Shown: positions 6,268 through 55,517 of the stretch, piece by piece | Layout: the number at the start of each line of letters is the position of its first letter | Numbering within the stretch: the first letter of the stretch is position 1 | Source: a virus | Direction: 5' to 3' (one strand) | Length of the DNA: 64,000 nucleotides | IMG/VR virus record: IMGVR_UViG_3300042691_041392 | The notes under the pieces: model-generated | What the model was told of the DNA's origin: nothing | What the model saw: the letters and a program-made list of their open reading frames with translations, nothing else | The model's database searches: none | Translations under genes and position numbers: made by a program

Positions 6268-6297
6268 AAAAAACTCACCAAATTGGTGAGTTTTTTT
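6268..6297. terminator. Bidirectional terminator between convergent genes
   Basis: aaaaaactcacca-aat-tggtgagtttttt. Confidence 0.8.
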
Positions 6298-7963
6298 ATG
6301 CGTCTATTTTAACATTTACTCTTTTGATTGCCTCTTGAATCCAATCTGGTAAAAAATGAGAAGAGTGTTTTATAACATCACCAAATCCACCATCTAATAC
6401 AATAGTATCAGCATAATCAGTTATAGATCTAACTGGTCTACCAGTCATTTGTACTAACCCAGCACAGGTCTTCCAACTATACCAATCCGGATTATTGACT
6501 TGTCTCATTTTGTTTTTCTGAGATGCTAAAGAAGGATAAGGAATTTTAGCAATAATTTGAAAACGGGCTTTATCATTATCAAAACTAACGCCTGTATCCA
6601 TTGAAGGACTAACAATAACAGTTGGTTCTGTACTTTCAAAGTGCATTTTCAAAACCTCATCTTTATTAGATGAATCGTGGAAAATAAGTCTTGGATCTTT
6701 AATTGAATCTTCAATCCATTTAGCCAGTTCAAAAGAATTTGTGTGTATAACTCCTTTTTTACCTTTATATTTATCTAATAATTTCTGTATATAAGGAATA
6801 TATCTTTTAAAAGTTTCTTCTTTTGTTTTAAATGACATCTTACCCAATGGCATATAAAAAATAGGTCTATTCTTTAATGGAAAAGGAGATCCAATTGAAT
6901 AGTAAACAGCTTTACTAACATCTAATCCGTTTAGATTACAAAATAAGTTCTTATCTAAAATAGTTCCAGACATAAGAAAAACCATATCATAGTGAGCAAA
7001 AACATACTTATCTAAGTAATCAAAAGACCAAATTGGTTCTAAGGATAATTCTTTTTGTCTAGCTTTTTCATTCCAATTAGATTCCAATACCCAGTTATTT
7101 GGATTTTCCTTATATTCTTTTAAGAATACTTCTATTTTTAATTGGTATTGTTTTAAATCTGTAACTAAGTTCATTAACTTAACGTCACTATTTTTACTAT
7201 TTAAAACTTTTGAGATTTTCAAATCTCTTTTATCAGATTTAACATCTCTTTTTGTATTAACCATTCCTTTCTCCATTCCCTCAACGGTATCTAAAATTTC
7301 ACCATTAAAATATGAAAGAAAATCAACATATGATTGAATAGTATTCACAGCTTTTAACTTTTTCAAAATCTCATATTCATTTGAAAATTTAAACCTCTTA
7401 ACTATTGTCTCAGTTATCTTAATGGAGATAAAGTCAGACATAACATCATCAAATTCATGACACTCATCAACAATTAAAACTCTAGCTCCTCTTGATTCCA
7501 TTAACTTTTGATTATAAATCGCATAAAGAATATAAAGATAAAAGTTTGTTAAAGAGATTCCACCACTAATATAGTTCTCTCTAGCGTTTGTATATGGACA
7601 AGATTCACAAGTTGTTTTATTAAGTCTATTAAACTCACCACCTTGAGCACAAGAACAAGAATAAGATTCACATTCATAATTCTCTTTACCCTTTAAATCA
7701 GAAATTGATTCGTAAGTTTCTGAGTATTGGTCTTGTAGAATTTTACTGTTAGTGATAACATCAACTCTTGCGAATTTACTTACATTCTTTTTATACCAGT
7801 CTGCAATCATTAAGGCTAAGTAAGATTTACCCGTACCAACTGGTAGATTAAGTAGATAGAACTTGTTTAGTTTATTTTTATTATATTCCGAATCTATAAA
7901 TTCCAATGCTTCCTTCTGTTCTTTTCTTGGTTTAAATTTTGCTAAATCTTTTTTAAGTGACAT
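6296..7963 (-). CDS. DinG/XPD-like SF2 helicase
   Basis: Q-motif 'RKEQ', 'PVGTGKS', Cys cluster, 'IVDECH', 'MSGT' and 'QMTGRPVRSITD'. Confidence 0.88.
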   Translation of the reverse strand: MSLKKDLAKFKPRKEQKEALEFIDSEYNKNKLNKFYLLNLPVGTGKSYLALMIADWYKKNVSKFARVDVITNSKILQDQYSETYESISDLKGKENYECESYSCSCAQGGEFNRLNKTTCESCPYTNARENYISGGISLTNFYLYILYAIYNQKLMESRGARVLIVDECHEFDDVMSDFISIKITETIVKRFKFSNEYEILKKLKAVNTIQSYVDFLSYFNGEILDTVEGMEKGMVNTKRDVKSDKRDLKISKVLNSKNSDVKLMNLVTDLKQYQLKIEVFLKEYKENPNNWVLESNWNEKARQKELSLEPIWSFDYLDKYVFAHYDMVFLMSGTILDKNLFCNLNGLDVSKAVYYSIGSPFPLKNRPIFYMPLGKMSFKTKEETFKRYIPYIQKLLDKYKGKKGVIHTNSFELAKWIEDSIKDPRLIFHDSSNKDEVLKMHFESTEPTVIVSPSMDTGVSFDNDKARFQIIAKIPYPSLASQKNKMRQVNNPDWYSWKTCAGLVQMTGRPVRSITDYADTIVLDGGFGDVIKHSSHFLPDWIQEAIKRVNVKIDA

Positions 7964-12535: not shown

Positions 12536-13051
12536 TTAAAAATCGCAATCAAAATAGTCTAAAATTATACCATTTTTCTCTACAACAAATTGCAATTCAT
12601 CTCTCTTTACTAATTGATATTCGTAATGTCTTCCTAATTTAAAGAGTGTTCTGATAAATGGAATGTCTTCACTTTCATTAACAACTTTTTCTTCAACCAT
12701 TAAACATAAAACTTTTTTATCATCTTCTGAATTGTAATTAATTAATTCATCATCGTGATTTCTTTCAAGACCTGTTTTACCATAAGCGAAGAATTGCGTT
12801 TTTAATTTTTCACCGGAGGTAGTATATGTTAGAGTAACATAATCACCAATTTCTATATTAGGATTTTCATCTTTTAAATAAACTCTAGTCCAAAAATATA
12901 TTTTTTCAGGAGATATTTCAATTTGAACTTCATCACTGACATCGTCTGATAATTCATCTGTATCTACATCTGCTAGTTGTTCTTGTATAAACTCATATAA
13001 TGTTTTACCATCATTAAGCTCGTTCATTGTATATTCTTTATTTTCTGACAT
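12536..13051 (-). CDS. Hypothetical protein
   Basis: 171-aa ORF with no recognised motif. Confidence 0.7.
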   Translation of the reverse strand: MSENKEYTMNELNDGKTLYEFIQEQLADVDTDELSDDVSDEVQIEISPEKIYFWTRVYLKDENPNIEIGDYVTLTYTTSGEKLKTQFFAYGKTGLERNHDDELINYNSEDDKKVLCLMVEEKVVNESEDIPFIRTLFKLGRHYEYQLVKRDELQFVVEKNGIILDYFDCDF

Positions 13052-21004: not shown

Positions 21005-21562
21005 TTATTTTTCATCATCAAATAATGAATCAATTTTCTTATCTCTTATGTAAGCACCTTTCAATTTGTCTAATTCGGTTGTCCATCCATTGATATTATC
21101 TTTAATGAATTTAGATTGTAAATTTCTATTGGCATTGAAACTTGTAGGTGTTGTGATATTTGGATCAAGATTATATTTTATTTCAACATGAAAATCATTT
21201 ACATCATCAGTTGATTTGTAGTGATATTCTTTAGCAATTATAATGAATTTATAATCTAATTTTTCTATGACTTTTAAGAAGTTTGTTACTTGGTGACTTT
21301 TATATTGATAAAGATCAATTACAATTAAGTTAACTCGAAATAGATTTGACTTATCGTTTACTAACTCTTCAAACTCTTCAAAGTTGTTAAATAATATACA
21401 ACTATGTAGTCCGTATATAAGACCACAACTTTTCTCTTTGTTAGGTGCGAAAAGTACATAATTATAATTATCAACTTCAAGGAAGTTAACAACTTCTAAG
21501 AGTACACTGGAAATATGATTAGGTGTCCCAGTAAAGAAATTATACTTTTTTAAAAAAATCAT
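21005..21562 (-). CDS. Hypothetical protein ending RDKKIDSLF
   Basis: 185 aa, with a Walker-B-like 'LIVIDL'. Confidence 0.65.
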   Translation of the reverse strand: MIFLKKYNFFTGTPNHISSVLLEVVNFLEVDNYNYVLFAPNKEKSCGLIYGLHSCILFNNFEEFEELVNDKSNLFRVNLIVIDLYQYKSHQVTNFLKVIEKLDYKFIIIAKEYHYKSTDDVNDFHVEIKYNLDPNITTPTSFNANRNLQSKFIKDNINGWTTELDKLKGAYIRDKKIDSLFDDEK

Positions 21563-21944
21563 TTATATTTAAACATTCTTTATTAACATCAACAATAAAG
21601 TTGAACTTTTGTAGAAATCTTCTTCCTATTAACATAGGATATTGCATATTATCACGATTGTTTAGTGAAACATATAATTTATATGGAGTATTTCCTAAAA
21701 TAACACTTGTGGGAATTGCATAACGTTCTTGTTCATGACCAAATGAACTTTTAACATTTATTGTTTTGAATTTTTCATAGACGAAGTTTTTATCGCCTAT
21801 TCTAAAATGTAATTTACCTTCTAATTCCTCTATCTCGTCACAATGTAAGACATTACTGTAAGCACCTGTGTCGATTTTAGCAGGTACATTAACCAATCCA
21901 AGATCCACAAAATGAAATAATTCTCTCCAACCAACTATATTCAT
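21540..21944 (-). CDS. RimK-associated retropepsin-like putative protease
   Basis: 'VGWRE', 'AKIDTGA' and 'MQYPMLIGRRFL'. Confidence 0.85.
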   Translation of the reverse strand: MNIVGWRELFHFVDLGLVNVPAKIDTGAYSNVLHCDEIEELEGKLHFRIGDKNFVYEKFKTINVKSSFGHEQERYAIPTSVILGNTPYKLYVSLNNRDNMQYPMLIGRRFLQKFNFIVDVNKECLNINDFFKKV

Positions 21945-22008: not shown

Positions 22009-22767
22009 ATGAATTCATATAGTTTTAGCTGTATAATTTTATACAGACACAATATACAGAGATGGAACAATCTAAAAAGAATACTGGAGTGGATAACTGG
22101 ATTTTCTAATGTAGAATTAATAATAGTTGAACAAGATACACATTCTAAAATTGGTCATTTAAACTTTCCAGGAAAACATATCTTTACAAAATCAAAAATG
22201 CCATTCAACCGTTCTTGGGGATTTAATGTTGGTTTAAAACACGTTAATTCAAAAGTTACGGTTTTTACAGACTGTGATTTGATAATGAACCCTGAACTAT
22301 TTATAAGTGGTTTGAAATCATTAGAACAGTTTGAGATGGTTAGTCCTTATAATTCTGTTGTTGATTTAAACCCACAAGAAAGTGGATTTCAATTAGAAGA
22401 GATGTTAAAAATTGATAGACCAGGTAGGGGTGAAAATGATATTCAAAAAATCAACATCTCCGGAGGTATAACTATGTTTAGAACGGATGCTATTAAAAAA
22501 ATCGCAGGGTGGAACGAAGACTTTATTTCTTGGGGAGGTGAAGATGACTTTCAAACTGTTAAGGTGGAGAACTTTTTAACGTGGTATGAACAACCGGGAA
22601 GATGTTACCATCTTTATCACGATAAAGAAAAAATTGACATGAAGTGGTATCAGAGAAATTTACAATTGTTATCGAAATTGAAGTCATTAACAAGAGAAGA
22701 ATTGAGTAAACAAATCATGACTAGTTCTCCAAAAATTGGAATGAAAAATAAATATGATAATTTTTAA
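22009..22767 (+). CDS. Glycosyltransferase (GT2/GT7-C, galactosyltransferase-like)
   Basis: 'IVEQD', 'FNRSWGFNVG', 'DCD' and 'WNEDFISWGGEDD'. Confidence 0.85.
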   Translation: MNSYSFSCIILYRHNIQRWNNLKRILEWITGFSNVELIIVEQDTHSKIGHLNFPGKHIFTKSKMPFNRSWGFNVGLKHVNSKVTVFTDCDLIMNPELFISGLKSLEQFEMVSPYNSVVDLNPQESGFQLEEMLKIDRPGRGENDIQKINISGGITMFRTDAIKKIAGWNEDFISWGGEDDFQTVKVENFLTWYEQPGRCYHLYHDKEKIDMKWYQRNLQLLSKLKSLTREELSKQIMTSSPKIGMKNKYDNF

Positions 22768-23681
22768 ATATTATTTAATAAAATATCTTCAATTTTATTA
22801 AAATCTTTATATGAAATTCTTAAAAGATGAATATTTTTAGATTTACAATATTCATCTTTTATTTTATCACATTCTATTGTGTATTTTAACTTATCCATTC
22901 CACCTTGAAATCCCAGTGGTTTGAAGTGTTGTATACCATCATATTCGATTAAAATATTTTTATCTGATAACCAAAAGTCAAATGATAATTTTTTATTTTT
23001 TATACAATCATCAAATTTTTTCTGTGTTTCGTATGTTATATTATTTTTTATTAGAAATCTCTCTATTCTATTCTCACCTCTAGATTGATTACATTTTGGA
23101 CAACCCTTACCATCTAAGTGATTTGATGGCATTTGTTTAAATGATCCATGTTTTGGGCAAATTATTTCCACTGGTGTTTTAGCATTTATATAATTTAACT
23201 TCGAATAATCATATAGAACACCATGTGTATTATTCGCTTTGCTAGGGAAAAATTGTGAGTATTTTTTAATGTTAGTATTTTTAGTTTTTTGTATTTTACA
23301 TCTAGGACATCCTTGTCCTCTAAGATGTTTATTTGGGGTTTGGTCAAAATATCCATGTATAGGACAAGATATATGAACTTTCGTACCATCATTAATATAT
23401 TCTACTTGATCATAATTGTAGAAGTTATTATGAACTTTATTTGATTGATCAATGAATTTGGACAAACTTTTACTGAATGATTTTTTATTTTTATCAATTG
23501 CACATTTTTTACAACCCTTACCAATTAAATGATTATATGGTAATTGTTCAAAATATCCATGTATAGGACATCCAATTAGTATCTTCGTTTTCGCGTTTAT
23601 GTAATTTACTCTATCATAATTATAAAAATTGTTATGCACATCATTTGCCTTTTTTATAAAGTTGTAAAACTTATCATCCAT
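22764..23681 (-). CDS. Homing endonuclease, CPxHG zinc-repeat plus PD-(D/E)XK-type nuclease
   Basis: Third paralog; 'SFDFWL...IEYDGIQH'. Confidence 0.85.
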   Translation of the reverse strand: MDDKFYNFIKKANDVHNNFYNYDRVNYINAKTKILIGCPIHGYFEQLPYNHLIGKGCKKCAIDKNKKSFSKSLSKFIDQSNKVHNNFYNYDQVEYINDGTKVHISCPIHGYFDQTPNKHLRGQGCPRCKIQKTKNTNIKKYSQFFPSKANNTHGVLYDYSKLNYINAKTPVEIICPKHGSFKQMPSNHLDGKGCPKCNQSRGENRIERFLIKNNITYETQKKFDDCIKNKKLSFDFWLSDKNILIEYDGIQHFKPLGFQGGMDKLKYTIECDKIKDEYCKSKNIHLLRISYKDFNKIEDILLNNI

Positions 23682-23714: not shown

Positions 23715-24431
23715 ATGACAACTTTTGATAAAATAAAAATAATTTCAAACTTTAAAGAGGAGAAAAATACACTACCTCAAATACAAGTCAATTATATTGA
23801 TTTTGTGTATGAAACTGAAGAAGAAAGATTGAAGAAAAAAATGGAAAGAAGAAACATCGCAATTGATGTTGTTCTTGATGAGGCTAATGAAGAAGATTTA
23901 GTGGATATAGTTCCTGATCAGACATTAAGAGATGAGTTATCTTTTGGTGGTGTTATAGCCCCACAAGTTTATAGTATGAGTATTCAATCAAAAAGATATA
24001 TATCAGAAGATAGTCTTTATGATGAAATTATCGACTTTATTGACAAATCAAACTTGAATTTGAATTCACCTGTTAATTTAGATTTAACTTTATCAAACTC
24101 ACCAGATGGATCTGATAATAGAAAGTTTATTTCTAAAGTAATGATGGCTTCCAACTTAATTGCTGTTGAAGGTAGAATAGGTCCTGCTAAAACTGTTATA
24201 TTAGGAAAGAATGTTTTTTATAAAATGGTGGATTGTTTAGATATGTTATCTAATACAGGTCTTCAACACTTTGTTGATTATTCAATTGATCCTGATAAAG
24301 TGATTGTTTTTAGAACAAACAATACAGATCAAAGTGGAATTATTTGTATTCTTGATGAGGGAAATGGTAGATATTTCTTAAAAGAAACACCAAATTGGGA
24401 GAGACAATATTGTAGTTTTAAAGTTATATAA
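23715..24431 (+). CDS. Reduced paralog of the major capsid protein
   Basis: Collinear matches to gp23 at 53766-55517: YIDFVY/YIDFQY, GGVIAP/AGVIGP, RKFISKVMMASNLIAVEGRIGPA/RKLITKIAHASNYIATEGRVGPA, RTNNTDQSGII/RKNNPDQPGII. Confidence 0.85.
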   Translation: MTTFDKIKIISNFKEEKNTLPQIQVNYIDFVYETEEERLKKKMERRNIAIDVVLDEANEEDLVDIVPDQTLRDELSFGGVIAPQVYSMSIQSKRYISEDSLYDEIIDFIDKSNLNLNSPVNLDLTLSNSPDGSDNRKFISKVMMASNLIAVEGRIGPAKTVILGKNVFYKMVDCLDMLSNTGLQHFVDYSIDPDKVIVFRTNNTDQSGIICILDEGNGRYFLKETPNWERQYCSFKVI

Positions 24432-24434
24432 AAT

Positions 24435-24464
24435 AAAAAAGACATCTATAAGATGTCTTTTTTT
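24435..24464. terminator. Bidirectional terminator
   Basis: aaaaaagacatct-ata-agatgtcttttttt. Confidence 0.8.
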
Positions 24465-24996
24465 ATGCTGGTACTCTTAATTTATCATATTTAAGTAGTA
24501 ATTTATACATTCTATCCCATTCGTCTTTTGGGTTTTGTATCTTTTTTTCATACCACTTATTGTTGTTCATGTATTCAACAATCATTCCAACTTTTAAATC
24601 ATCCATAGTTTTTGGAACCCAATATCTTTTTGCTTCTACGAACGAAAATGATACACCATTGTGTAAATATGATTTATTTTCCGAATCGGTATTATACATA
24701 AGTAAACCCAGTGGTTGTTCAGAACCATCAAAGAAAACTTTTTTAGCATTTGAATCTCCTTGGTATTTTACAATTGCGCAATCTTGATTAAAATGATCTA
24801 ATAAGAAAATAGCATCTCTTCTTAAAGAATCATTATCTGGTCCCCAAGCAATAACAGAATCTTCAAAGTTACCTTTATAATAACCTTGTATAGGTAAGAT
24901 TTGATATTCTTTTGAATAAAGAACAGAAATCATTTCGTTTAATCTATCAGCTGATAGAATTATATATGAAGATTGTACACTTTCTAATCCGTTCAT
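24463..24996 (-). CDS. Putative SAM lyase (T3 SAMase-like) with C-terminal extension
   Basis: 'YIILSADR', 'GYYKGNFEDSV' and 'FNQDCAIVK' resemble T3 SAMase 'YVLVSAFR', 'GCYRE..EEKTV' and 'WEQDCVLVY' (recalled, not aligned). Confidence 0.55.
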   Translation of the reverse strand: MNGLESVQSSYIILSADRLNEMISVLYSKEYQILPIQGYYKGNFEDSVIAWGPDNDSLRRDAIFLLDHFNQDCAIVKYQGDSNAKKVFFDGSEQPLGLLMYNTDSENKSYLHNGVSFSFVEAKRYWVPKTMDDLKVGMIVEYMNNNKWYEKKIQNPKDEWDRMYKLLLKYDKLRVPA

Positions 24997-26295: not shown

Positions 26296-26469
26296 CTACT
26301 TTTTAAAAATTTTCTTTATCTTATTTCTTCTAATTTCGGATCTTAAAATACCTTCTAAAAAATTATCATCAATACCATAATGATGACTTAAATCTGTCAC
26401 CATTTCAACACTCCATTCAGCTTTTAATGCTTTAGTGCTCACCTCAACAGATTTCATTTTTATACTCAT
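26296..26469 (-). CDS. 57-aa mini-protein: gp23-like peptide plus RRNKIKKIF motif (not in ORF track)
   Basis: MSIKMKSVEVSTKALKAEWSVEMVTDLSHHYGIDDNFLEGILRSEIRRNKIKKIFKK; ATG overlaps the upstream TAA (TAATG). Confidence 0.75.
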   Translation of the reverse strand: MSIKMKSVEVSTKALKAEWSVEMVTDLSHHYGIDDNFLEGILRSEIRRNKIKKIFKK

Positions 26470-27791
26470 TACTTAACTCCTTTCTCATCAACTATTGATG
26501 TTATTTTACCACCTTTACCTTTTTTCTTTTTATCTTCTGATCCTTTTTGTATTTCATCAAATACATCTGGATAAACTTCTCCTTCAGCATCTGTTTCATA
26601 TTGAATATCAAAAAACTCATCAAAGTCTAAAAGACCAGATCTTGTTAACTCAACTTCATGTATCTTATTCAAGTATCTATCAATATACTTATCAATATCA
26701 TCAACAAATAAGTTGAATAACTTAACCGTATTTTCAGTAAAAACTCCAATTGGTTTTTTTCTTTTCTTATTAAATGAACCAAGAATTATTTTAAAGATAT
26801 ATTCAAGTTTAGAATCTAATTCTAAATATTCTTTAGTCATCTTGTTTGGAATTAATTCTTTATTTATTTTAAATTTTTCTTTATCAAAAAATTCCGGTAT
26901 TATAAACTCAAAATTTACTAAGTCATCTTTAACTTCATCTAAATAAAAATTGTACAACTTACAAATTAGATAAATATAAATCTCATCTTTTTTAGTACCT
27001 TTTAGTTTAATATCTTCTAAATTTAAAGATTGACAAAAATTCAAAAAGTTAATTAAGATTAATGAGTATATTTCCACATAGTCAGTTGACTTATCACTAC
27101 TTACTCTTTTATATAGTGGATTTAGTAATTGAAATGATATATCTTTACTATCTATTCTAACAATTAGCTTTTCTAAATTTTCTTGAAATTCATCAAGCAT
27201 TAAAAAAGAATTTTCCGAGAGTGGATTTAATATTTTATAAAAGAAAAAGGCAAAAGACTTATCACCAAAAACATATTCTAAATCTTCTTCACTTGTGTTT
27301 AAAAAATACTTTATAGCCTCAATCATTCTCTCTGTTAATTTACCCTGAAATATAACCGGTATCATATCAACATTCATCAATCTAGAATATTCATCAATCT
27401 CTTCGATATTAAACTCATATTTACCACTTTTATAAATAGATGTTAATACTAATCCATTTTTTGGAAGTTTATCATATTCTATATTTGCTGGTTGATTATC
27501 AGGAAAGTACTCAAAACAAAACCACCATTTTTTATTTAAAAGTGATTTAACTCTATTATCTAGTGAATCTAAGTATTTTATAGCTGGGTTATAATAATTT
27601 TGCATAGCTAAATCAATTAGATTAATAGAATCACTATTAATTGATTTTGCTTTTATAGTAAAATCTTTACCATTCCAATTAACCCATATTTTACTTCCTT
27701 GAATATCTTCGAATACGGTTATATCATTACTAAACATAGAGTTAAGTAATTCTGTATTTTCTAAATCATTAAGTGTTTTTAAATTACTCAT
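26469..27791 (-). CDS. RNA-ligase-fold protein with degenerate catalytic motifs
   Basis: Motif I-like 'EDIQGS' (no Lys), III-like 'FCFEY', 'IPVIFQG' and IV-like 'EKLIVR'. Confidence 0.55.
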   Translation of the reverse strand: MSNLKTLNDLENTELLNSMFSNDITVFEDIQGSKIWVNWNGKDFTIKAKSINSDSINLIDLAMQNYYNPAIKYLDSLDNRVKSLLNKKWWFCFEYFPDNQPANIEYDKLPKNGLVLTSIYKSGKYEFNIEEIDEYSRLMNVDMIPVIFQGKLTERMIEAIKYFLNTSEEDLEYVFGDKSFAFFFYKILNPLSENSFLMLDEFQENLEKLIVRIDSKDISFQLLNPLYKRVSSDKSTDYVEIYSLILINFLNFCQSLNLEDIKLKGTKKDEIYIYLICKLYNFYLDEVKDDLVNFEFIIPEFFDKEKFKINKELIPNKMTKEYLELDSKLEYIFKIILGSFNKKRKKPIGVFTENTVKLFNLFVDDIDKYIDRYLNKIHEVELTRSGLLDFDEFFDIQYETDAEGEVYPDVFDEIQKGSEDKKKKGKGGKITSIVDEKGVK

Positions 27792-27865
27792 ATTTTTTTA
27801 TACTTTTTGTTTTGATTTTTGTTTTTATCCAAACTTACTTATATATAAAAAATATAAAATGTAGT

Positions 27866-29509
27866 ATGAAGAAATTATTATTAATTACTCCGCATTTATC
27901 CACTGGTGGTTTACCACAATTTTTACTTAAAAAAATAGAGATTTTAGTTAAAAAATTTGATGTTTACTTAGTAGAGTGGGATGATATAACTGGTGGTAGA
28001 TTGGTTATTCAAAAAAATAGAATTAAAGATATATTGGGTGATAAATTAATTACTCTTTATGATAAAAAAAATATATTTAATCTAATTGATGTAATTAATC
28101 CAGATATAATACATTTTGAAGAATTTCCTGAAACATTTATCGATGATTCTATACTAAAGTCAATTTATATTGATATGAGAAGTGGTTATAATTATGTTAT
28201 AACTGAAACAACACATGGTACTTTATTTAATAAAGATGATAAGAAATATCTTCCAGATAGAACTATGTTTGTTTCTGATATAAATATGATTCAATATAAT
28301 TCTATTTCAACTAAACCAGAAGTAATACCAATGGATGTTGATAACAGTGAGTTTAGAAATAAAAAACTTATTGATCTTGGATTAGATCCAAGTTATAAAC
28401 ATGTTATGAACGTTGGTTTATTTAATAGTAATAAAAATCAATCAGAAATCTTTGAATATGCTAAAATGATGTTAGATCAAAAAGTTCATTTTCATTTCTT
28501 TGGTAATATGGCTGGGAATTTTGAGGAATATTGGAGACCATTAGTTAATAATAGACCTGAGAATTGCACATTATGGGATGAACGAAGTGATTTACACAAG
28601 TTTTATTCTTGTATGGATCTTTTCTTATTTACATCTAAATTAGAAAATAGACCATTATCTGTTATCGAAGCATTATCCAATAATATGAGTGTTTTAATGT
28701 ATAACTTATCTAATTACAAAGGTGAGTTTTCTAAATATGAAAATGTTGAATTTTTGACAAATGACTTTGATTATAACGTAAAGTTAATTAAAGATTCATT
28801 AAAATTAGAAGAGTTTATTATAGATAATAAAGAGAAAGTAGAAGATAATTATAAAGAATATAAAATATCTGCTTATCATATGTTAACAGATATTGATACC
28901 GATAGAGAAGTAAAATCAATGATATCTTTAACTAAATTAAAAGATTATGGTATTGATTATTTTCCTTGTGTGAATAAAAGATGGACTGAATTGCCTCCAT
29001 CTGATAGTTGTCAATATCCGGAAAAAATAAGTATGGAACCAGGTGGTAAATTAACACCAGGTCATTATGGTTGTTATTTGGCACATAAAGACGCTTTTTA
29101 TAGAGGTATGAACTCAGATTCGGATTTCATTTTCATATTTGAATGTGATGCTGTTATTGATATTGATATGAATGAGTTTATGAGTAAGGTTAAATTTGCT
29201 TGTGATGTTCTAAATAAAACGGATTTATTGATGTTTTCTTTTGGTTATCATAATAACTCACATATAATTGACAAATATAATGATTATTGGACAGTTAATA
29301 AATTTTATGGAGCTCATGCTTATTTAATACCAAGAAGAAGTTTTGGTATAATTGATAAAATGTATCAAACTGCTAAGTGGAATGTATCTGATTTATTATT
29401 TGTTGAGAATTTAGATCAATATAAAACAGGAATTTTTGAAGTACCACCAACAAAACAATCGGCTGGTTACTCAATATTAGATAAAATATACAATGAAGAC
29501 AGACACTAA
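27866..29509 (+). CDS. Two-domain glycosyltransferase (GT4-like plus GT25-like); likely start 27866
   Basis: 'PHLSTGG', 'NKNQ', 'ENRPLSVIEAL'; second domain 'GHYGCYLAH', 'IFECDA', 'GAHAYLI'. Confidence 0.85.
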   Translation: MKKLLLITPHLSTGGLPQFLLKKIEILVKKFDVYLVEWDDITGGRLVIQKNRIKDILGDKLITLYDKKNIFNLIDVINPDIIHFEEFPETFIDDSILKSIYIDMRSGYNYVITETTHGTLFNKDDKKYLPDRTMFVSDINMIQYNSISTKPEVIPMDVDNSEFRNKKLIDLGLDPSYKHVMNVGLFNSNKNQSEIFEYAKMMLDQKVHFHFFGNMAGNFEEYWRPLVNNRPENCTLWDERSDLHKFYSCMDLFLFTSKLENRPLSVIEALSNNMSVLMYNLSNYKGEFSKYENVEFLTNDFDYNVKLIKDSLKLEEFIIDNKEKVEDNYKEYKISAYHMLTDIDTDREVKSMISLTKLKDYGIDYFPCVNKRWTELPPSDSCQYPEKISMEPGGKLTPGHYGCYLAHKDAFYRGMNSDSDFIFIFECDAVIDIDMNEFMSKVKFACDVLNKTDLLMFSFGYHNNSHIIDKYNDYWTVNKFYGAHAYLIPRRSFGIIDKMYQTAKWNVSDLLFVENLDQYKTGIFEVPPTKQSAGYSILDKIYNEDRH

Positions 29510-31070
29510 AATAGGATTTATCATTACATACTTTCATACATCAGATGAAGGTTTGAATTTACTTATAGAGAATTTAAAAACTATTAGTAGAGAAAATTAT
29601 TACTTAGTTTTAGCAAGTCACTCACCTTTAGATAAAAACATTCAGGAAATGTGTGACTTTTATTTTTATCAACAAAAAAATATTGTTGATGATAGAAAAT
29701 ATTCACACGGTGTTGCAGAAAGTAATTTAATTGAAATTTGTTTAAAACATTTAAAAGATCAATCAATTAATTATACTTATAAGATAACTTATGATGTTGA
29801 AATAGTTGATGTTAATGAGTTTAAAAAATGGAATATAGATGGATATCAATTTGTTTCTTGTAATTGGGGAACTAATATCATTTGTACAAATTCATTCTTT
29901 ACTAATATAGATTTTTTACTTACAAATATAACATTTTTCCGAAGCATTGAAGAAATGTTTTTAGTAAACACAGTTTTAGAAAACTGTTGGGAGGCTAATT
30001 TTAGAAATAATAATGTTTTAGATAAAATATATTCGTTTAGTGATAAATATGAATTTTATGGTCAAAATAAGATAGATCTTTGTTTTTATAACTACAATAA
30101 AATAGATTTTTGGTATTCTCCTGAAGAAACAAAATTCTTTATTATGAATAATAGTGAAGATATGAACAATGTTCACTTTAGAATATTTGACTATTATACC
30201 GATATCTGTATTTATTTGAATAGAGATTTTGATTTAAAACAGAATTTAATTTTTTGGTTTATACCACCATTTAGTTTAAATATTAATAAGTCAGTAAATG
30301 GGTTTTACTTAGAAATATACTTAGAAAATCAAGTTATTAGAAAAAATATTTTAATAAAAGATTTTGACTTAAAGCATCCACTTTCTAATAAGTTTAAATT
30401 AATTAAAGATACTGAAGTTAAGTTCAATGAGTTTTCCGACTTTAATGATATGAGTATCTATGATTTATTTAGTTTTAACATTGATGAAATTAATAATTAT
30501 GTTGACATTGGTGCAAATTATGGTATGTCGAGTATATCTTTTATTGAGAGAGATATAAAAACATATATGATAGAAGCAGACCAATCAAATGTAGATATTC
30601 TAAATAGAATGTGGAGTAAGAATTCTAAAATAAGAATTATAGATAAGGCAATTTCATCAGTTGATGGTGAAATTGTATTTTATACAAGTCCAGGTATAGG
30701 TTCGGTTGTTTCTTCTTTATATCATACTGATGCTAATGGAAATGATATGGAGAGAAAAGAAGTTAGAGTTCAATCTATAACACCGAATAAACTAATTGAA
30801 GAATTTATTGATGAGAGTGAGATAGATTTGATGAAGGTTGATATTGAAGGTGCTGAGTATGATTTCTTTGAAACTATAACAAATGAAAACCTTAAAAAGA
30901 TAAAAAGAATTATAATAGAATATCACAATAATGATAATTATAGAGCTATGAGTATTTTAGAGAAACTAACATATTGTGGATTTAAATTTAAATTATCAAA
31001 ATGGAGTCATAATTGTGGTAATTATATAATAGAAAATAAAATGGGTGTTATTTACGCCGAAAAAATATAA
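29493..31070 (+). CDS. FkbM-family methyltransferase (C-terminal domain)
   Basis: 'VDIGANYG', 'MKVDIEGAEY' and 'IIEYH'. Confidence 0.85.
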   Translation: MKTDTKIGFIITYFHTSDEGLNLLIENLKTISRENYYLVLASHSPLDKNIQEMCDFYFYQQKNIVDDRKYSHGVAESNLIEICLKHLKDQSINYTYKITYDVEIVDVNEFKKWNIDGYQFVSCNWGTNIICTNSFFTNIDFLLTNITFFRSIEEMFLVNTVLENCWEANFRNNNVLDKIYSFSDKYEFYGQNKIDLCFYNYNKIDFWYSPEETKFFIMNNSEDMNNVHFRIFDYYTDICIYLNRDFDLKQNLIFWFIPPFSLNINKSVNGFYLEIYLENQVIRKNILIKDFDLKHPLSNKFKLIKDTEVKFNEFSDFNDMSIYDLFSFNIDEINNYVDIGANYGMSSISFIERDIKTYMIEADQSNVDILNRMWSKNSKIRIIDKAISSVDGEIVFYTSPGIGSVVSSLYHTDANGNDMERKEVRVQSITPNKLIEEFIDESEIDLMKVDIEGAEYDFFETITNENLKKIKRIIIEYHNNDNYRAMSILEKLTYCGFKFKLSKWSHNCGNYIIENKMGVIYAEKI

Positions 31071-31077
31071 TATATTT

Positions 31078-33396
31078 ATGAGTTTTGATGTTAAAATAAA
31101 TGGTGATTTTTTAGAAATAAAAAATAACACTGATAAATTTTTTGAAAATTGTTTAATTAATTTGAAAAATATATTTTTCGATGATTTAATTTTTGAAAAA
31201 ACTAATATCATACCAAACAAAGAAGATGTTGATAATAAAAAATCATTTTTTATTATGAATAAAGATTTCAGATCAACTTGGGGTGATAAAGAGTATTTCT
31301 TAAAAATTTATTCAAATGATAGATTAATTTATGATCAAGTTATAAATGATAGATCAAAATGTTTTGTTTTGGTTTCTAATAAAAAGTATGAAGACTTAAC
31401 TATAAAATTAATTAATCAATTAGTTAAATTAACTAATATAGATATACTTCATTATACAATTGGTTATGAAACCATGTATAATAATAATCGAATAAAAAAT
31501 ATTAAAATTGATATTAGTAGAGATCTTAACAATCCGCATTATATACAATTTACAAAACCGACAGCATTTTTAGATGCTATTTCTAGAGGATATAAGGACT
31601 ATGTATTTTTAGATTCTGATATTCAAGTAAGAGATAATATATCTGAAATTTTTGAATATGCTAAATACATAACGGATGGTCCAATTTTACAAAGAGGATG
31701 TTGGGATTATACTTTTGTTAATGGTGCCTATACACCTGGCGATTTAACAAGAAAATTATTGGGAGTTGATAAACAAACATCACCATATTGTTTAACAAAT
31801 GTTGTTATTTTTAATCAAACACATAAATCAATATTTGAAGAATGGAAGTCTGTTTGTGATTTAGAAGAAGTTGAGACTATTTGTGAGAAAGAGTTTTTAC
31901 ATGATGAAATATTATTCAATTGCATTCTATGGAAGAATAATATAATACCTAAAATGTTTTGGTTCTTTATAAATGTTTCTAATTCAAATGATGTTAAATT
32001 CTTTTTAGAATATAAATATGATGGGTATGAGTTACCAGTTGATATGAATAAACACGGTAAAGGATATCCATTTCAATCTAGATTTCCATATGATAAAAAT
32101 AATATCTTCGGGTTTCATTGTGTGAAGGATTTAAATGAAGTTGATAAAATTCATAATTTAATTAGTAATAGTAATTCAAATTTTGAGGAAAAACTTTTAA
32201 ATTTCTATGATAATATAGAAAAATCTGATATCAATATCAATCCAAAATATGAGGATGTTAGTATTTTAAATCATTATATTGGAGGTGCTTATATTGAAGT
32301 TAAGTCAAAATTGAATAAACAATTTAAAGTTGAATTCTGGAATTCAAAGGGGTTTTGTGAATATTCAACAACCATTGGTAGTAATATGTGGACAAAAACA
32401 AATAAGAAGTATTTTGAAGAGTACACATGTAAAGTCTGGGATGGTGAAGAATTAATCTATGATAAAAAGTATGATGCTACGGGTAAGAGAGTTTTTATAA
32501 CATTAGAATCGAGATCAATTGGCGATACATTGGCTTGGTTTCCATATGTTGATGAATTTAGAAAAAAATGGAATTGTGAGGTTATATGTTCAACTTTCTG
32601 GAATCACCTATTTAAGGAAACTTATCCAGAAATTGAATTTGTTGAACCGGGATCAGTGGTGAATCACATCTATGCTATGTATAATATTGGTTGGTTTTAT
32701 AATGAGGATAATACTGTACAGTTTGATAAAAATCCAACAGATTTTAAAGAAATTCCACTTGGAAAAACATCAGCTGATATACTAGGTTTGGATTTTGAAT
32801 ATGTCAGAGCTAAAATTAACTTACCAAAAGTAGAAAAAAAGAAAAGAGTTGGTATAGCAATTCACTCAACTGCACAAACTAAATACTGGAATAATCCAAC
32901 TGGATGGCAGGAAGTTGTTTATTTTTTGAAGGCTAGTGGATATGAAGTTATGATTCTTTCTAAAGAAGGTGATAATTATATGGGTAATAAACATCCAGAA
33001 GGATGTGTGAAATTACCAGAGGGATCAATGGAGAAACTAATGGAAACAATGTTATCTTGTGAGTTTTTTATAGGAGTTGGTTCTGGTTTGAGTTGGGTAT
33101 CTTGGACAATAGGAGTCCCAACATTCTTGATATCAGGATTTAGTAAACCAATCTCTGAATTTGAAGGTGAGAATGTATTTAGAATTTTCAATGATTCAGT
33201 TTGTAATGGTTGTTACAATAGATATAGATTAGATGCTGGTGATTGGAATTGGTGTCCGGATCATAAAGGTACTGAAAGACAGTTTGAATGTACTAAGTCA
33301 ATTACTGGTAAAATGGTTATTGACACAATAATGAATTCTGGTTTAATAAGAGTGCCAAACTTGGATGAAGATGTTTTACCACAATTTAATTTTTAA
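31078..33396 (+). CDS. GT-A domain fused to autotransporter-heptosyltransferase (AAH/TibC, GT9-like) domain
   Basis: 'VFLDSD'; 'SIGDTLAWFPY', 'FFIGVGSGLSW', 'ISGFS' and Cys cluster 'CNGCYN...WCP...ECTKSIT'. Confidence 0.82.
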   Translation: MSFDVKINGDFLEIKNNTDKFFENCLINLKNIFFDDLIFEKTNIIPNKEDVDNKKSFFIMNKDFRSTWGDKEYFLKIYSNDRLIYDQVINDRSKCFVLVSNKKYEDLTIKLINQLVKLTNIDILHYTIGYETMYNNNRIKNIKIDISRDLNNPHYIQFTKPTAFLDAISRGYKDYVFLDSDIQVRDNISEIFEYAKYITDGPILQRGCWDYTFVNGAYTPGDLTRKLLGVDKQTSPYCLTNVVIFNQTHKSIFEEWKSVCDLEEVETICEKEFLHDEILFNCILWKNNIIPKMFWFFINVSNSNDVKFFLEYKYDGYELPVDMNKHGKGYPFQSRFPYDKNNIFGFHCVKDLNEVDKIHNLISNSNSNFEEKLLNFYDNIEKSDININPKYEDVSILNHYIGGAYIEVKSKLNKQFKVEFWNSKGFCEYSTTIGSNMWTKTNKKYFEEYTCKVWDGEELIYDKKYDATGKRVFITLESRSIGDTLAWFPYVDEFRKKWNCEVICSTFWNHLFKETYPEIEFVEPGSVVNHIYAMYNIGWFYNEDNTVQFDKNPTDFKEIPLGKTSADILGLDFEYVRAKINLPKVEKKKRVGIAIHSTAQTKYWNNPTGWQEVVYFLKASGYEVMILSKEGDNYMGNKHPEGCVKLPEGSMEKLMETMLSCEFFIGVGSGLSWVSWTIGVPTFLISGFSKPISEFEGENVFRIFNDSVCNGCYNRYRLDAGDWNWCPDHKGTERQFECTKSITGKMVIDTIMNSGLIRVPNLDEDVLPQFNF

Positions 33397-47553: not shown

Positions 47554-47767
47554 TTAAAATCTTTTTAATTTTAAAATCTCTTTTATCAGATTTTTCAAGA
47601 GGTTCTAAGTAGATTTCACCATCTGAAATCCTAACCTCCCATTTACCTCCAGTTTTATCATCTAATAAAACTAGTTTCTTAACTATTACATTTCCATCTG
47701 GATCAACTAAAATTGATGAATCTCCATTTGGAGTGTTTATTTCAAATCTATTTGGTTTAATTGCCAT
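47546..47767 (-). CDS. Small protein ending RDFKIKKILND
   Basis: 73 aa. Confidence 0.7.
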   Translation of the reverse strand: MAIKPNRFEINTPNGDSSILVDPDGNVIVKKLVLLDDKTGGKWEVRISDGEIYLEPLEKSDKRDFKIKKILND

Positions 47768-48461
47768 TTAAAAGTTTATCTATTTTTTCGTCTCTCATTT
47801 GAGATAATAGAATTAGTGATGATTTTTGAAACTCATCATCTATAACATAAACTACTTCATTATCACTTATTTCAAAATAAAAATCATAACTAATAATTAT
47901 TTTTGGTTGAAAAGTTGCTTCACTACGAACTTCATATTGAAAATTATTTATGTTAAATCGTATATCATTAAATAAATAAATCATTTCATCATCCCACCTA
48001 AGATATGGATCAACATAAACTTCAAAATCTAAATACTTACCAACTGGATAAATATAACCATTTGTATTCAATGTGTTTTTAGATAATTTGAAATTAAAAA
48101 AATGAAAAGATGATGAGTCTTGTAACTCAGCTGACAATCTAGCACAACTAACTAAATTTTTATACTTATATTTTGATAAATATAAGCTAGTTATGTTTAA
48201 TTTTTCATAATAACCAATATTTCTCAAATCGATAAAACCTTTATTATATTTCATCTCTTTGAATATATACTTAATTAAAGTTCTTAAAATCTCATATTTA
48301 ATCTGACTAATAAATTTATCTATATATTCATCAGTCATTGGAACTGAAACTGAAATACTCACACTATTTTTATTAGACGTTATTTTATCATCTAAAATTA
48401 AAAAGTCTTTGTTTTCAAAACTTAAAGATTTGATTATATTTTCTATTAAATCACTATACAT
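47757..48461 (-). CDS. Degenerate major-capsid-protein paralog ending RDEKIDKLL
   Basis: GYIYPVG...VYVDPYLRWDD matches gp23 GQLYPVG...IYVDPYMKYND; SEATFQPK matches SEATFAPR. Confidence 0.82.
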   Translation of the reverse strand: MYSDLIENIIKSLSFENKDFLILDDKITSNKNSVSISVSVPMTDEYIDKFISQIKYEILRTLIKYIFKEMKYNKGFIDLRNIGYYEKLNITSLYLSKYKYKNLVSCARLSAELQDSSSFHFFNFKLSKNTLNTNGYIYPVGKYLDFEVYVDPYLRWDDEMIYLFNDIRFNINNFQYEVRSEATFQPKIIISYDFYFEISDNEVVYVIDDEFQKSSLILLSQMRDEKIDKLLNGN

Positions 48462-53765: not shown

Positions 53766-55517
53766 TTAGTTAAGTAATTGATTTCTATCAGTTACAACGA
53801 TAGTCATAAATTGTTTTTGTGGGAACCAACCAACTTCAGCTACTGCGTATCTAGATCTTAGTAACATTCTTGGAGCGAAAGTCGCTTCAGAAATAACTGA
53901 GATAGATTGAGCCATTAAGTAAGGTACGAAGATGATACCTGGTTGATCAGGATTGTTTTTTCTACCTAAAACGATTCTGTTGTCGTTATATTTCATGTAT
54001 GGATCAACATAGATAGAAATATCACCAATTGAACCAACAGGATATAATTGACCTTGTCCGTTTAATTTAGATTTAACTGGGTTAATAGTGTAACCAGCGA
54101 TATCTTGTAAAGCTGCAGCTAATCCCCCGTTTGTGATTAAGTATTGAGCTGGACCTACACGACCTTCAGTTGCGATGTAGTTAGAAGCGTGAGCAATCTT
54201 AGTGATTAACTTTCTTTGAACAGCGTGTGTAGTTTCACCTGTTACAGCAGCACTAGCATAAGCTGTGTTTAAGTCAAAGATTGTTGAAGCAGAACCAGTA
54301 ATTAAAGTACTTGATAAAGAAGTATTTAATGGAGCTGATGTTCTGTTTAACGCACCCATCTCAAAGATTTTAGCAACGATTTGTTTAGAAATTGTTTGAG
54401 ATAACTCGTTAACAAGGATAGATTCCATTTTTTGAACGATATCCATACCTGTGTTAGCTTTAATATCTTCAATTTCTGTTCTTCTTAAAGCTGAAGATAC
54501 TTCAATAGTACCAACTGCGATAGTTTTAGAAGAAATTTTTGGTCCGATAACACCAGCGTAAGAGTCATCGTCAGCATCTCTACCCATTGGGTAAGAACCA
54601 GCAGCGTTAGAAGTAGCAACACCTGTCCAGTTTGCAGAGAAACCAGGGATATGATCTTCTAATGCAGATACTAATTCAACAGTTTTTGTACTTGCACCTG
54701 ATACAGAGTGAGTACCAACAAGAACGATTTGAGATGACATAGAAGCCGTAGCTGAGAATGTATTTCTTGTAGAGTCAAAAGCCCAAGCAGTTGTAAATTG
54801 GTTTACACCTGTGTGAGATGTGTTAGCTTGTCTGTAAGCTCTGAAGATTGGGTAACCATCGATACGAGAGAAACCTAAGAACTCAGCGTAAGCAGCTTTG
54901 TTTGAAGGCTCAGTTTGAGTAAACTCACCACCTACTGGTGCTTCAGATCCTGCTGTGTTAGATGCAGTACCTAAAGTAACCCATACTCTACCACCTTGAA
55001 GACCACCACTTGTTTGAGTAATGTTATATCCAGATAATTTAGTGTTTAATGTTGTAGTAACATTTCCTAATGTAGTAGAGTCTAAGTTTAATTTGAAAAC
55101 TTGTGGTCTCTCATCAGATGCGCCTAATCTTGTATCATCATATTGGAAATCAATATAAAGTAAATCAATTTTCGGACCTGGAGAAGGTTTAACAGCTACT
55201 AAATCTAAACCGATTGTTTGAGCAGCGATTTTCATAGCTACTGGTAAAAGGTTTTGACCAACGTCTCCTGAACCAGCAACACCACCCCAGTTTGCACCAA
55301 CTGTAACACCTGAAGGTGTATTTGAACCAATAACTGGATTTAAAACAGCACCCATACCTGCTACGTTAGAAGCATTTACATATGCATTTTCATTGATTGA
55401 GTGAAACTCAGCGTATTCCGCCATCCATTCAACTCTATCACCTGTAACTCCCATGTTCTCAAGAACCGGAGCCCATTTCTTAGTTGCTTTCGCTTTGTCT
55501 ATTCTAATGTGTGACAT
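53766..55517 (-). CDS. Major capsid protein (T4 gp23-like)
   Basis: 'KKWAPVLE', 'IYVDPY', 'IIFVPY' and 'TFAPRMLLRSRYA'; highly biased codons; downstream of the protease. Confidence 0.93.
   Translation of the reverse strand: MSHIRIDKAKATKKWAPVLENMGVTGDRVEWMAEYAEFHSINENAYVNASNVAGMGAVLNPVIGSNTPSGVTVGANWGGVAGSGDVGQNLLPVAMKIAAQTIGLDLVAVKPSPGPKIDLLYIDFQYDDTRLGASDERPQVFKLNLDSTTLGNVTTTLNTKLSGYNITQTSGGLQGGRVWVTLGTASNTAGSEAPVGGEFTQTEPSNKAAYAEFLGFSRIDGYPIFRAYRQANTSHTGVNQFTTAWAFDSTRNTFSATASMSSQIVLVGTHSVSGASTKTVELVSALEDHIPGFSANWTGVATSNAAGSYPMGRDADDDSYAGVIGPKISSKTIAVGTIEVSSALRRTEIEDIKANTGMDIVQKMESILVNELSQTISKQIVAKIFEMGALNRTSAPLNTSLSSTLITGSASTIFDLNTAYASAAVTGETTHAVQRKLITKIAHASNYIATEGRVGPAQYLITNGGLAAALQDIAGYTINPVKSKLNGQGQLYPVGSIGDISIYVDPYMKYNDNRIVLGRKNNPDQPGIIFVPYLMAQSISVISEATFAPRMLLRSRYAVAEVGWFPQKQFMTIVVTDRNQLLN

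Follow-up and report, generated by a model that had tools for sequence, protein, structure and literature searches.

A minimal gp23-derived HK97-fold protein of a huge phage with a conserved tag-class helix in place of the insertion domain

Proteins of the HK97 fold make up virus shells, encapsulins and gene-transfer-agent heads. The ORF at 23715..24431 (+ strand, 238 aa, ATG start) in a 64,000-nt stretch of IMG/VR record IMGVR_UViG_3300042691_041392, hereafter the window, raises the question of what a strongly shortened relative of a capsid protein, here called mini1, does when it is encoded away from the head genes. With a GC content of 28.6%, the window derives from an AT-rich uncultivated huge phage. 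Its major capsid protein (MCP), a 583-aa protein of the gp23 type encoded at 53766..55517 (- strand; Pfam Gp23, E 2e-27), shares 73% identity with the MCPs of LR756502.1 and LR745206.1 (642-kb and 635-kb 'uncultured phage' genomes) and 28% with those of Lak megaphages. An identical copy of the 238-aa mini1 protein is also present in public metagenomes (P0001).

A preliminary description of the locus regarded mini1 as a capsid paralog that matches gp23 of the same phage in four collinear blocks, and comparison with the MCP at 53766-55517 upholds both statements. BLASTP aligned mini1 136-212, comprising blocks 3 and 4, with MCP 435-531 at E 1e-9, and hhalign of a 101-sequence family profile against the MCP profile returned 98.5% probability and E 3.6e-15 over ORF residues 130-236 and MCP residues 425-574. 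Block 3 (residues 130-165; 24102..24209, +), an A-domain helix followed by the GRIGPA loop, is the most MCP-like part of the protein: 15 of 23 residues are identical between mini1 136-158 and MCP 435-457, and I149, R154 and G156 are kept in at least 90% of the sequences of the 101-member family. Block 4 (residues 186-214, DPDKVIVFRTNNTDQSGIICI; 24270..24356, +) matches MCP 503-532, with BLASTP pairing mini1 192-212 and MCP 505-531. Block 1 (residues 21-32, PQIQVNYIDFVY; 23775..23810, +) corresponds to MCP 115-126 and forms the first strand of a hairpin equivalent to the HK97 E-loop (model strand E22-31). Block 2 (residues 78-94, GGVIAPQVYSMSIQSKR; 23946..23996, +) corresponds to MCP 321-337 and forms the return strand (E82-94); its core, GGVIAPQVY, aligns mini1 78-86 with MCP 321-329. 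By sequence these two blocks are weak, with E values of 7.6e-3 and 1.4e-3 when taken alone and a BLASTP E value of 0.027 for the YIDF block (block 1); they are collinear with the MCP in order and agree with a fold match to T4 gp23 106-519. Mini1 had no Pfam match even at E 1, and thus falls below the Gp23 gathering score, and PHROGs offered nothing usable. Among its 101 relatives, 23 match Pfam Gp23 at E <= 0.01 (best, 2.1e-9). Mini1 clearly descends from a gp23-type MCP, yet it is not a regular member of PF07068. Queried with the family profile, with the insert region or with the MCP profile, the PDB yielded no relevant sequence match; only the MCP sequence by itself led to T4 gp23 (E 0.003).

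AlphaFold modeling of mini1 yielded a pLDDT of 38 with a 9-sequence alignment and of 90.9, with a pTM of 0.81, with the 101-sequence alignment. The model came closest to T4 gp23 of the unexpanded head, at Z 16.6 with an rmsd of 2.8 across 183 residues, in a match that extends from residue 3 to 238 of mini1 and from 106 to 519 of the 521 residues of gp23. T4 gp24 (Z 13.0), the encapsulin EncA (14.1) and HK97 gp5 (about 12) were also matched, and T4-like MCPs ranked first among viral predicted structures. The model shows an HK97 fold whose A domain is accompanied by a shortened P domain and a shortened spine helix. As to which elements remain, the predicted structure is that of a complete A domain with an E-loop-type hairpin and a P-domain stub, without an N-arm. 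By way of the MCP-T4 gp23 alignment, helix 165-170 of mini1 falls on the short helix of the A domain in which the gp24-bypass positions lie.

Mini1 begins at about MCP residue 95, equivalent to T4 gp23 residue ~104, such that the first ~94 MCP residues, namely the cleaved N-terminal piece and the N-arm, are missing, in line with the earlier claim of N-arm loss. In T4, the N-arm comprises gp23 residues 66-105, and the insertion (I) domain, which rests on the neighboring subunit, is attached through linkers that correspond to the HK97 E-loop (PMC9546572). Mini1 has lost the I domain and retains the linkers as strands E22-31 and E82-94. The spine helix (residues 98-111; 24006..24047, +) is reduced to about 14 residues from about 40 in the MCP; overall, mini1 95-135 (41 aa) stands for MCP 345-434 (90 aa), a deletion of ~50 residues from the spine helix, of which little remains, and from the segment following it. 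A P-domain hairpin of ~20 residues (MCP ~533-553), which the MCP-T4 gp23 alignment assigns to the P-domain sheet, is cut to a tight turn. The N-arm, which mini1 lacks, and the P domain, of which it keeps a stub, are the parts that bond capsomers to one another. Contrary to the preliminary description, the last C-terminal strand was not lost. Residues 219-237 (24369..24425, +) match MCP 556-574 by hhalign, fold alignment and model; hhalign aligned residues 219-236 (RYFLKETPNWERQYCSFK) with MCP 556-574, and the fold alignment reaches gp23 residue 519 of 521.

In place of the I domain, mini1 carries a 45-residue module (residues 33-77; 23811..23945, +) comprised of a helix at 35-53 and a flexible acidic linker of low confidence. 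The exchange, first put at ~190 for ~45 residues, is one of 194 residues (MCP 127-320) for 45. The module is not a worn-down I domain: its Smith-Waterman score against that domain fell below the shuffle mean. No second copy of the insert turned up when it was compared by BLAST with every ORF of the window, although the tag discussed below is too short for BLAST. A T4 I-domain helix that may resemble the insert has no part in the argument.

The module is best understood alongside a short motif found at the ends of many proteins of this clade. The strict form of this tag is R-[DE]-x-K-[LI]-x-x-[LI]-[LG], and a tag was considered C-terminal when located <=8 residues from the end. The strict motif occurred 27 times at C-termini and 7 times internally in a set of 518 ORFs from the window and 300 kb of LR756502.1. 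Because BLAST is unsuited to so short a motif, a position matrix was used; upon iteration it placed the tag on 77 of the 518 C-termini (15%), and 9-mers that reached 10 bits or more with the matrix from these 77 C-terminal tags were called tags. As a class of sequences, the tag is real and C-terminally enriched. Samples of LR756500 (0/71), LR756501 (0/87), Lak-B5 (0/45) and PTm1 (0/23) contained no tags. Every contig with a mini1-family member has tags, and LR756504, where mini1 was not detectable, has them in 4 of 44. Mini1 was also considered as a reader of the tag and judged unlikely in this role, being itself tagged and undetectable in the tagged LR756504. Our literature search found neither the mini1 family nor the tag described.

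Within the module, the core RNIAIDVVL (R46-L54; 23850..23876, +) scores 11.3 bits on the tag matrix. It ranks 19th, and its LR756502 ortholog 17th, among 103,807 internal 9-mers, and those ranked higher are mostly plain internal tags. The best site in the MCP scores 0.09 bits, that is, the MCP has no tag-like site. Across the 101-sequence family, the helix reads K-x-x-N-R-[DEN]-L-[A/K]-I-D-x-[ILV]-L-[DG]-[ED], with a median score of 10.7 bits at the fixed tag column, a tag match at this same column in about 90% of members, and at least 15 bits with a canonical tag in 17 of them (e.g., RENKISELL and RELKINEVL). The site is internal, occupying residues 46-54 of 238 rather than the last ~8 residues. 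The preliminary view that a tag helix had replaced the I domain agrees with these data: linker strands E22-31 and E82-94 flank a 45-residue module with a helix that scores as a tag, R46 is the sole invariant residue in the family, and residues 35-53 are predicted to be helical with pLDDT 76-90. The insert thus shows both the conservation among homologs and the predicted helicity on which that view depended. Like the clade tag R-D-x-K-L-x-x-L-L, the helix displays its conserved positions 1, 5, 8 and 9 (R1, L/I5, L/I8, L9) on one face, often has D/E/N as its second and D/N as its sixth residue, is followed by an acidic tail, and is confined to tag-using genomes. It differs in being internal, at the tip of a hairpin, and in having Ala for Lys at position 4.

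The last difference bears on whether the likeness is incidental, with a helix of generic amphipathic R/hydrophobic pattern merely capping the shortened hairpin or packing on the core and having no link to the tag system. The window copy deviates from the strict consensus by N instead of D/E at position 2 and A instead of K at position 4; family-wide, D/E occurs at position 2 in 61 of 101 sequences and K at position 4 in 17 (Ala in 42%). Moreover, 10 bits are attained anywhere in 2% of shuffled proteins and the window score of 11.3 in about 1%, and the high local pLDDT (86-90) could signify packing against the core. Nonetheless, we consider an incidental likeness quite unlikely. The tag match holds a fixed column that is the best-conserved element of the family; the surrounding ~30 residues of the family profile also match, exactly at the tags, the corresponding regions of two further proteins derived from the MCP; and the helix is missing from a related core encoded by LR756500, tag-less in its sampled genes. 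Mini1 is firmly established as a minimal gp23-derived HK97 protein in which the I domain has been exchanged for a conserved helix of the tag class.

Mini1 is one of several small proteins built from MCP pieces. A second paralog, mini2 (234 aa; 47757..48461, -), copies MCP 460-553 and has a tag at its end. A 57-aa ORF (26296..26469, -) contains the MCP return strand and the start of the spine helix, scores above threshold with Pfam Gp23 (E 5.8e-9; positions 136-183 of the model) and has RRNKIKKIFKK as its terminal tag (core RRNKIKKIF); its L017 ortholog (12662-12859) also matches Gp23. LR745206.1 (L010:508-981) and LR756502.1 (L011:474-971) encode 157-165-aa copies of the MCP N-terminus (MCP 8-122) in which an internal tag module (…KSENRDRKIDSITDDKE…) sits between VAVKPIGG and LFYMDYQY, just ahead of the YIDFQY-type strand. 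In metagenomic chains of 580-659 aa, P0123 (L009:8001-9980) and P0106, a mini1-like part is linked to a mini2-like one, and no tag is present; P0123 retains the I-domain remnant IDGSPIFKAYR. The first ~45 residues have a ribbon-helix-helix look by eye, whereas Pfam gave Gp23 alone. Outside the MCP-derived set, a 555-aa window protein (6296-7963, -) and its counterpart (L008:6301-7968) have a perfect internal tag, RDLKISKVL or RDLKISKIL, at residue 246 in both genomes. The conserved internal tags of this protein and of the L010/L011 protein, along with the helix-free core of a tag-less megaphage, suggest at the level of sequence that the tag may operate internally as well as terminally.

The mini1 profile retrieved 282 cluster representatives at 50% identity (E <= 1e-3), nearly all 217-281 aa in length and the majority between 230 and 270 aa. 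Counts refer to the window and its relatives. Mini1 is short and highly diverged and its window copy has no Pfam match, properties that might be expected of a decaying, functionless remnant of a duplicated capsid gene. Such decay is hardly credible given a frame that is intact in 282 representatives of consistent length, a syntenic gene that is single-copy in both LR756502 and LR745206, a confident fold, and invariant or near-invariant residues. A contig with a GC content of 51% (L020, Logan ERR12084973) encodes both a mini1-family member and a tag-like C-terminus (…RNQQLERLGI); thus, neither family nor tag is restricted to AT-rich megaphages.

The genes around mini1 provide the main indication of its function. 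A GT2/Glyco_transf_7C glycosyltransferase gene (22009..22767, + in the window) lies immediately upstream of mini1 on the same strand in 10 of 12 loci, usually overlapping or abutting its start, and the pairing is found in 7 lineages with identity down to about 22%. This conserved pairing, which the preliminary description overlooked, is the strongest functional clue for mini1. Additional glycosyl- and methyltransferase genes are found nearby at 27773-33396. The association is not universal: family members at loci L018 and L020 and the tandem fused forms (P0123) are without glycan neighbors, a 479-aa MCP paralog of LR756501 has no glycan context, and the window glycosyltransferase is itself without a tag. 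Furthermore, in a clade with conserved gene order, adjacency can outlast any functional tie. In the window, glycosyltransferase gene and mini1 are separated by a gene (22764..23681, -) for a 305-aa protein that has an endonuclease-like tail in addition to three DUF723/treble-clef zinc-finger repeats. Because it occupies this place only in the window genome, being absent from L001, L002, L017 and L019, it is probably a mobile homing-type endonuclease insertion.

Downstream of mini1, a palindromic hairpin with A and T runs (24435..24463) between convergent genes is a likely two-way terminator. A sigma-70 promoter scan of this AT-rich DNA was uninformative (18 matches versus 20.6 expected), and an upstream AATATATA motif was rejected as a mini1 signal as it lies on the opposite strand and serves the divergent gene. 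The convergent neighbor (177 aa; 24463-24996, -) has a sub-threshold match to S-adenosylmethionine lyase PF23780 (E 2.9e-5; 24.5 bits versus a cut-off of 28). Divergently upstream of the glycosyltransferase gene is an overlapping gene pair (21005-21944, -), also found in L001, L002, L014, L017 and L019; one gene encodes a retropepsin-like 'Zn_protease' (PF05618, E 3.5e-15) and the other a ~185-aa protein with a tag at its end (…YIRDKKIDSLFDDEK).

A second connection to glycans comes from LR756500.1, where a 408-aa protein (L031:892-2118, equivalent to L036:8897-10123; about 128.9-130.1 kb of the genome) fuses the same truncated HK97 core as that of mini1 (hhalign E 4.2e-11) to a KdsD-type SIS domain (E 1e-16). 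The core of the fusion has no tag helix, and the sampled genes of this genome are tag-less. The fusion gene is part of a long operon that, judging from its predicted products, is of the Kdo/capsule type, with KdsA-like, KdsB-like, GT2/7C, KpsC/S-like, sulfo-, pyruvyl- and methyltransferase and GT1 genes.

Since its gene nearly always follows a sugar-transferase gene, mini1 is probably a helper outside the shell. We infer a non-shell role from the position of the gene outside the head block, its fast divergence, and the missing P-domain tip and N-arm, which make inter-capsomer contacts; the link to glycans is drawn from the GT2/7C gene upstream in 10 of 12 loci and the SIS fusion in the LR756500 operon. 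We therefore favor, tentatively and as something short of probable, a mimic of the capsid protein that acts outside the shell together with glycan enzymes, its tag helix serving as a handle. Such a protein would be an accessory subunit of phage glycan-building enzymes, cooperating with the glycosyltransferase. Its capsid-like core would provide a capsomer-type surface that may dock on the MCP or capsomers or oligomerize as a platform, and the tag helix on its hairpin would plug it into the reader that may bind the C-terminal tag of ~15% of the proteome.

A place in the head itself must also be weighed, either as a minimal vertex (penton) protein substituting for T4 gp24 or as a minor or packaged capsid protein brought in by its tag. 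Pfam Gp23 and the MCP profile revealed no gp24-type vertex paralog in the whole records of LR756502.1 and LR745206.1, each of which has one full-length capsid gene plus several short MCP-derived ORFs. The mini1 model also fits T4 gp24 (Z 13.0), and the A domain, the core of the capsomer, is whole, including the short helix aligned to gp24-bypass positions. However, T4-like phages without gp24 are known that have gp23 at their vertices. Furthermore, mini1 lacks the N-arm and P-domain tip needed for bonds to surrounding hexamers, it has diverged far more than the MCP with which it would need to fit together, and it is predicted to be co-transcribed with the glycosyltransferase gene rather than with head genes. 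LR756504, Lak-B5 and PTm1, which share the MCP type, have no mini1-like protein. Collectively, these points make a head component very unlikely.

The rate of change suggests another reading. Between the window and LR756502/LR745206, identity is 27-31% for mini1 and 26-33% for mini2, as opposed to 63-68% for the glycosyltransferase, 46-66% for other neighbors and 73% for the MCP. Divergence of both small paralogs (26-33%) that far outpaces neighbors (46-68%) and MCP while preserving fold and motifs would suit a conflict protein: a decoy or blocker of capsid-sensing host sensors, or a dominant-negative poison of head assembly by competing related phages, routed by its tag with other early effectors. 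Some bacterial defenses are indeed set off by major capsid proteins, as with Lit and the T4 Gol peptide or CapRel, and several separate tagged copies of MCP pieces within the same genomes, together with the location of mini1 outside the head module, point in the same direction. On the other hand, no specific sensor is suggested by the mini1 sequence, capsid sensors should be triggered rather than silenced by a mimic, and both the coupling to the glycosyltransferase and the sugar-isomerase fusion are left unexplained. We regard a role in conflict as unlikely.

Seen against known systems, mini1 has the fold of T4 gp23 and gp24 (PF07068; PDB 7VRT, 5VF3, 1YUE) while descending from the gp23-type MCP of its own phage, and, as with gp24, the paralog and the MCP are encoded in one genome. 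It keeps the A domain, E-loop-equivalent linkers, start of the spine helix and C-terminal strands of gp23. It differs in size (238 aa versus 427-583 aa), in the absence of the insertion domain, N-arm and cleaved N-terminal piece, in a P domain reduced to a stub, in a gene behind that of a glycosyltransferase instead of among head genes, in its tag helix, and in evolving about three times faster than the MCP. Encapsulins are also small HK97-fold proteins of similar size, with EncA a good match (Z 14.1) that ranks below T4 gp23, and their cargo-loading peptides recall the ~10-residue terminal peptide that the phage of mini1 has on many unrelated proteins. In mini1, however, the peptide-like helix is on the HK97-fold protein itself and not on cargo, and both the P-domain hairpin, part of a domain needed for shell closure, and the spine helix are truncated.

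Virus-encoded systems for virion glycosylation act on the capsid and tail of mycobacteriophages and on chlorovirus Vp54. These systems resemble the present locus in having clusters of virus-encoded glycosyltransferase and methyltransferase genes, and a link between capsid and glycan enzymes is plausible; a truncated capsid-protein paralog is not known as a partner in any of them. For glycosyltransferase clusters of jumbo phages, the host envelope has been proposed as acceptor (PMC7824862). The glycan acceptor of the mini1 phage could equally be the host envelope.

A bolder proposal, which we consider quite improbable as a whole, is that an HK97 capsid protein was exapted in megaphages and became a small docking module outside the shell, linking the enzymes of glycan synthesis to the capsid; in one clade, an internal copy of the tag would have wired this module into a tag-reader network that organizes ~15% of the proteome. 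The module would be separate beside the glycosyltransferase or fused to a Kdo-pathway isomerase. If true, internal copies would make the tag a position-independent, transplantable binding helix.

The mini1 family, without a Pfam or PHROG model, can be added to annotation resources. Its conserved internal tag, at a defined and probably exposed place on a well-predicted fold, would be a handle for the tag's reader, making mini1 a folded bait for that reader with R46 as the obvious point mutant. Gene pairing and fusion offer a testable lead on the role of glycosyltransferase clusters in huge phages, and the link to glycans raises the question of whether huge-phage capsids are glycosylated. More broadly, minimal HK97 paralogs that apparently do not build shells, in a family this large and conserved, would represent a new role for the fold.
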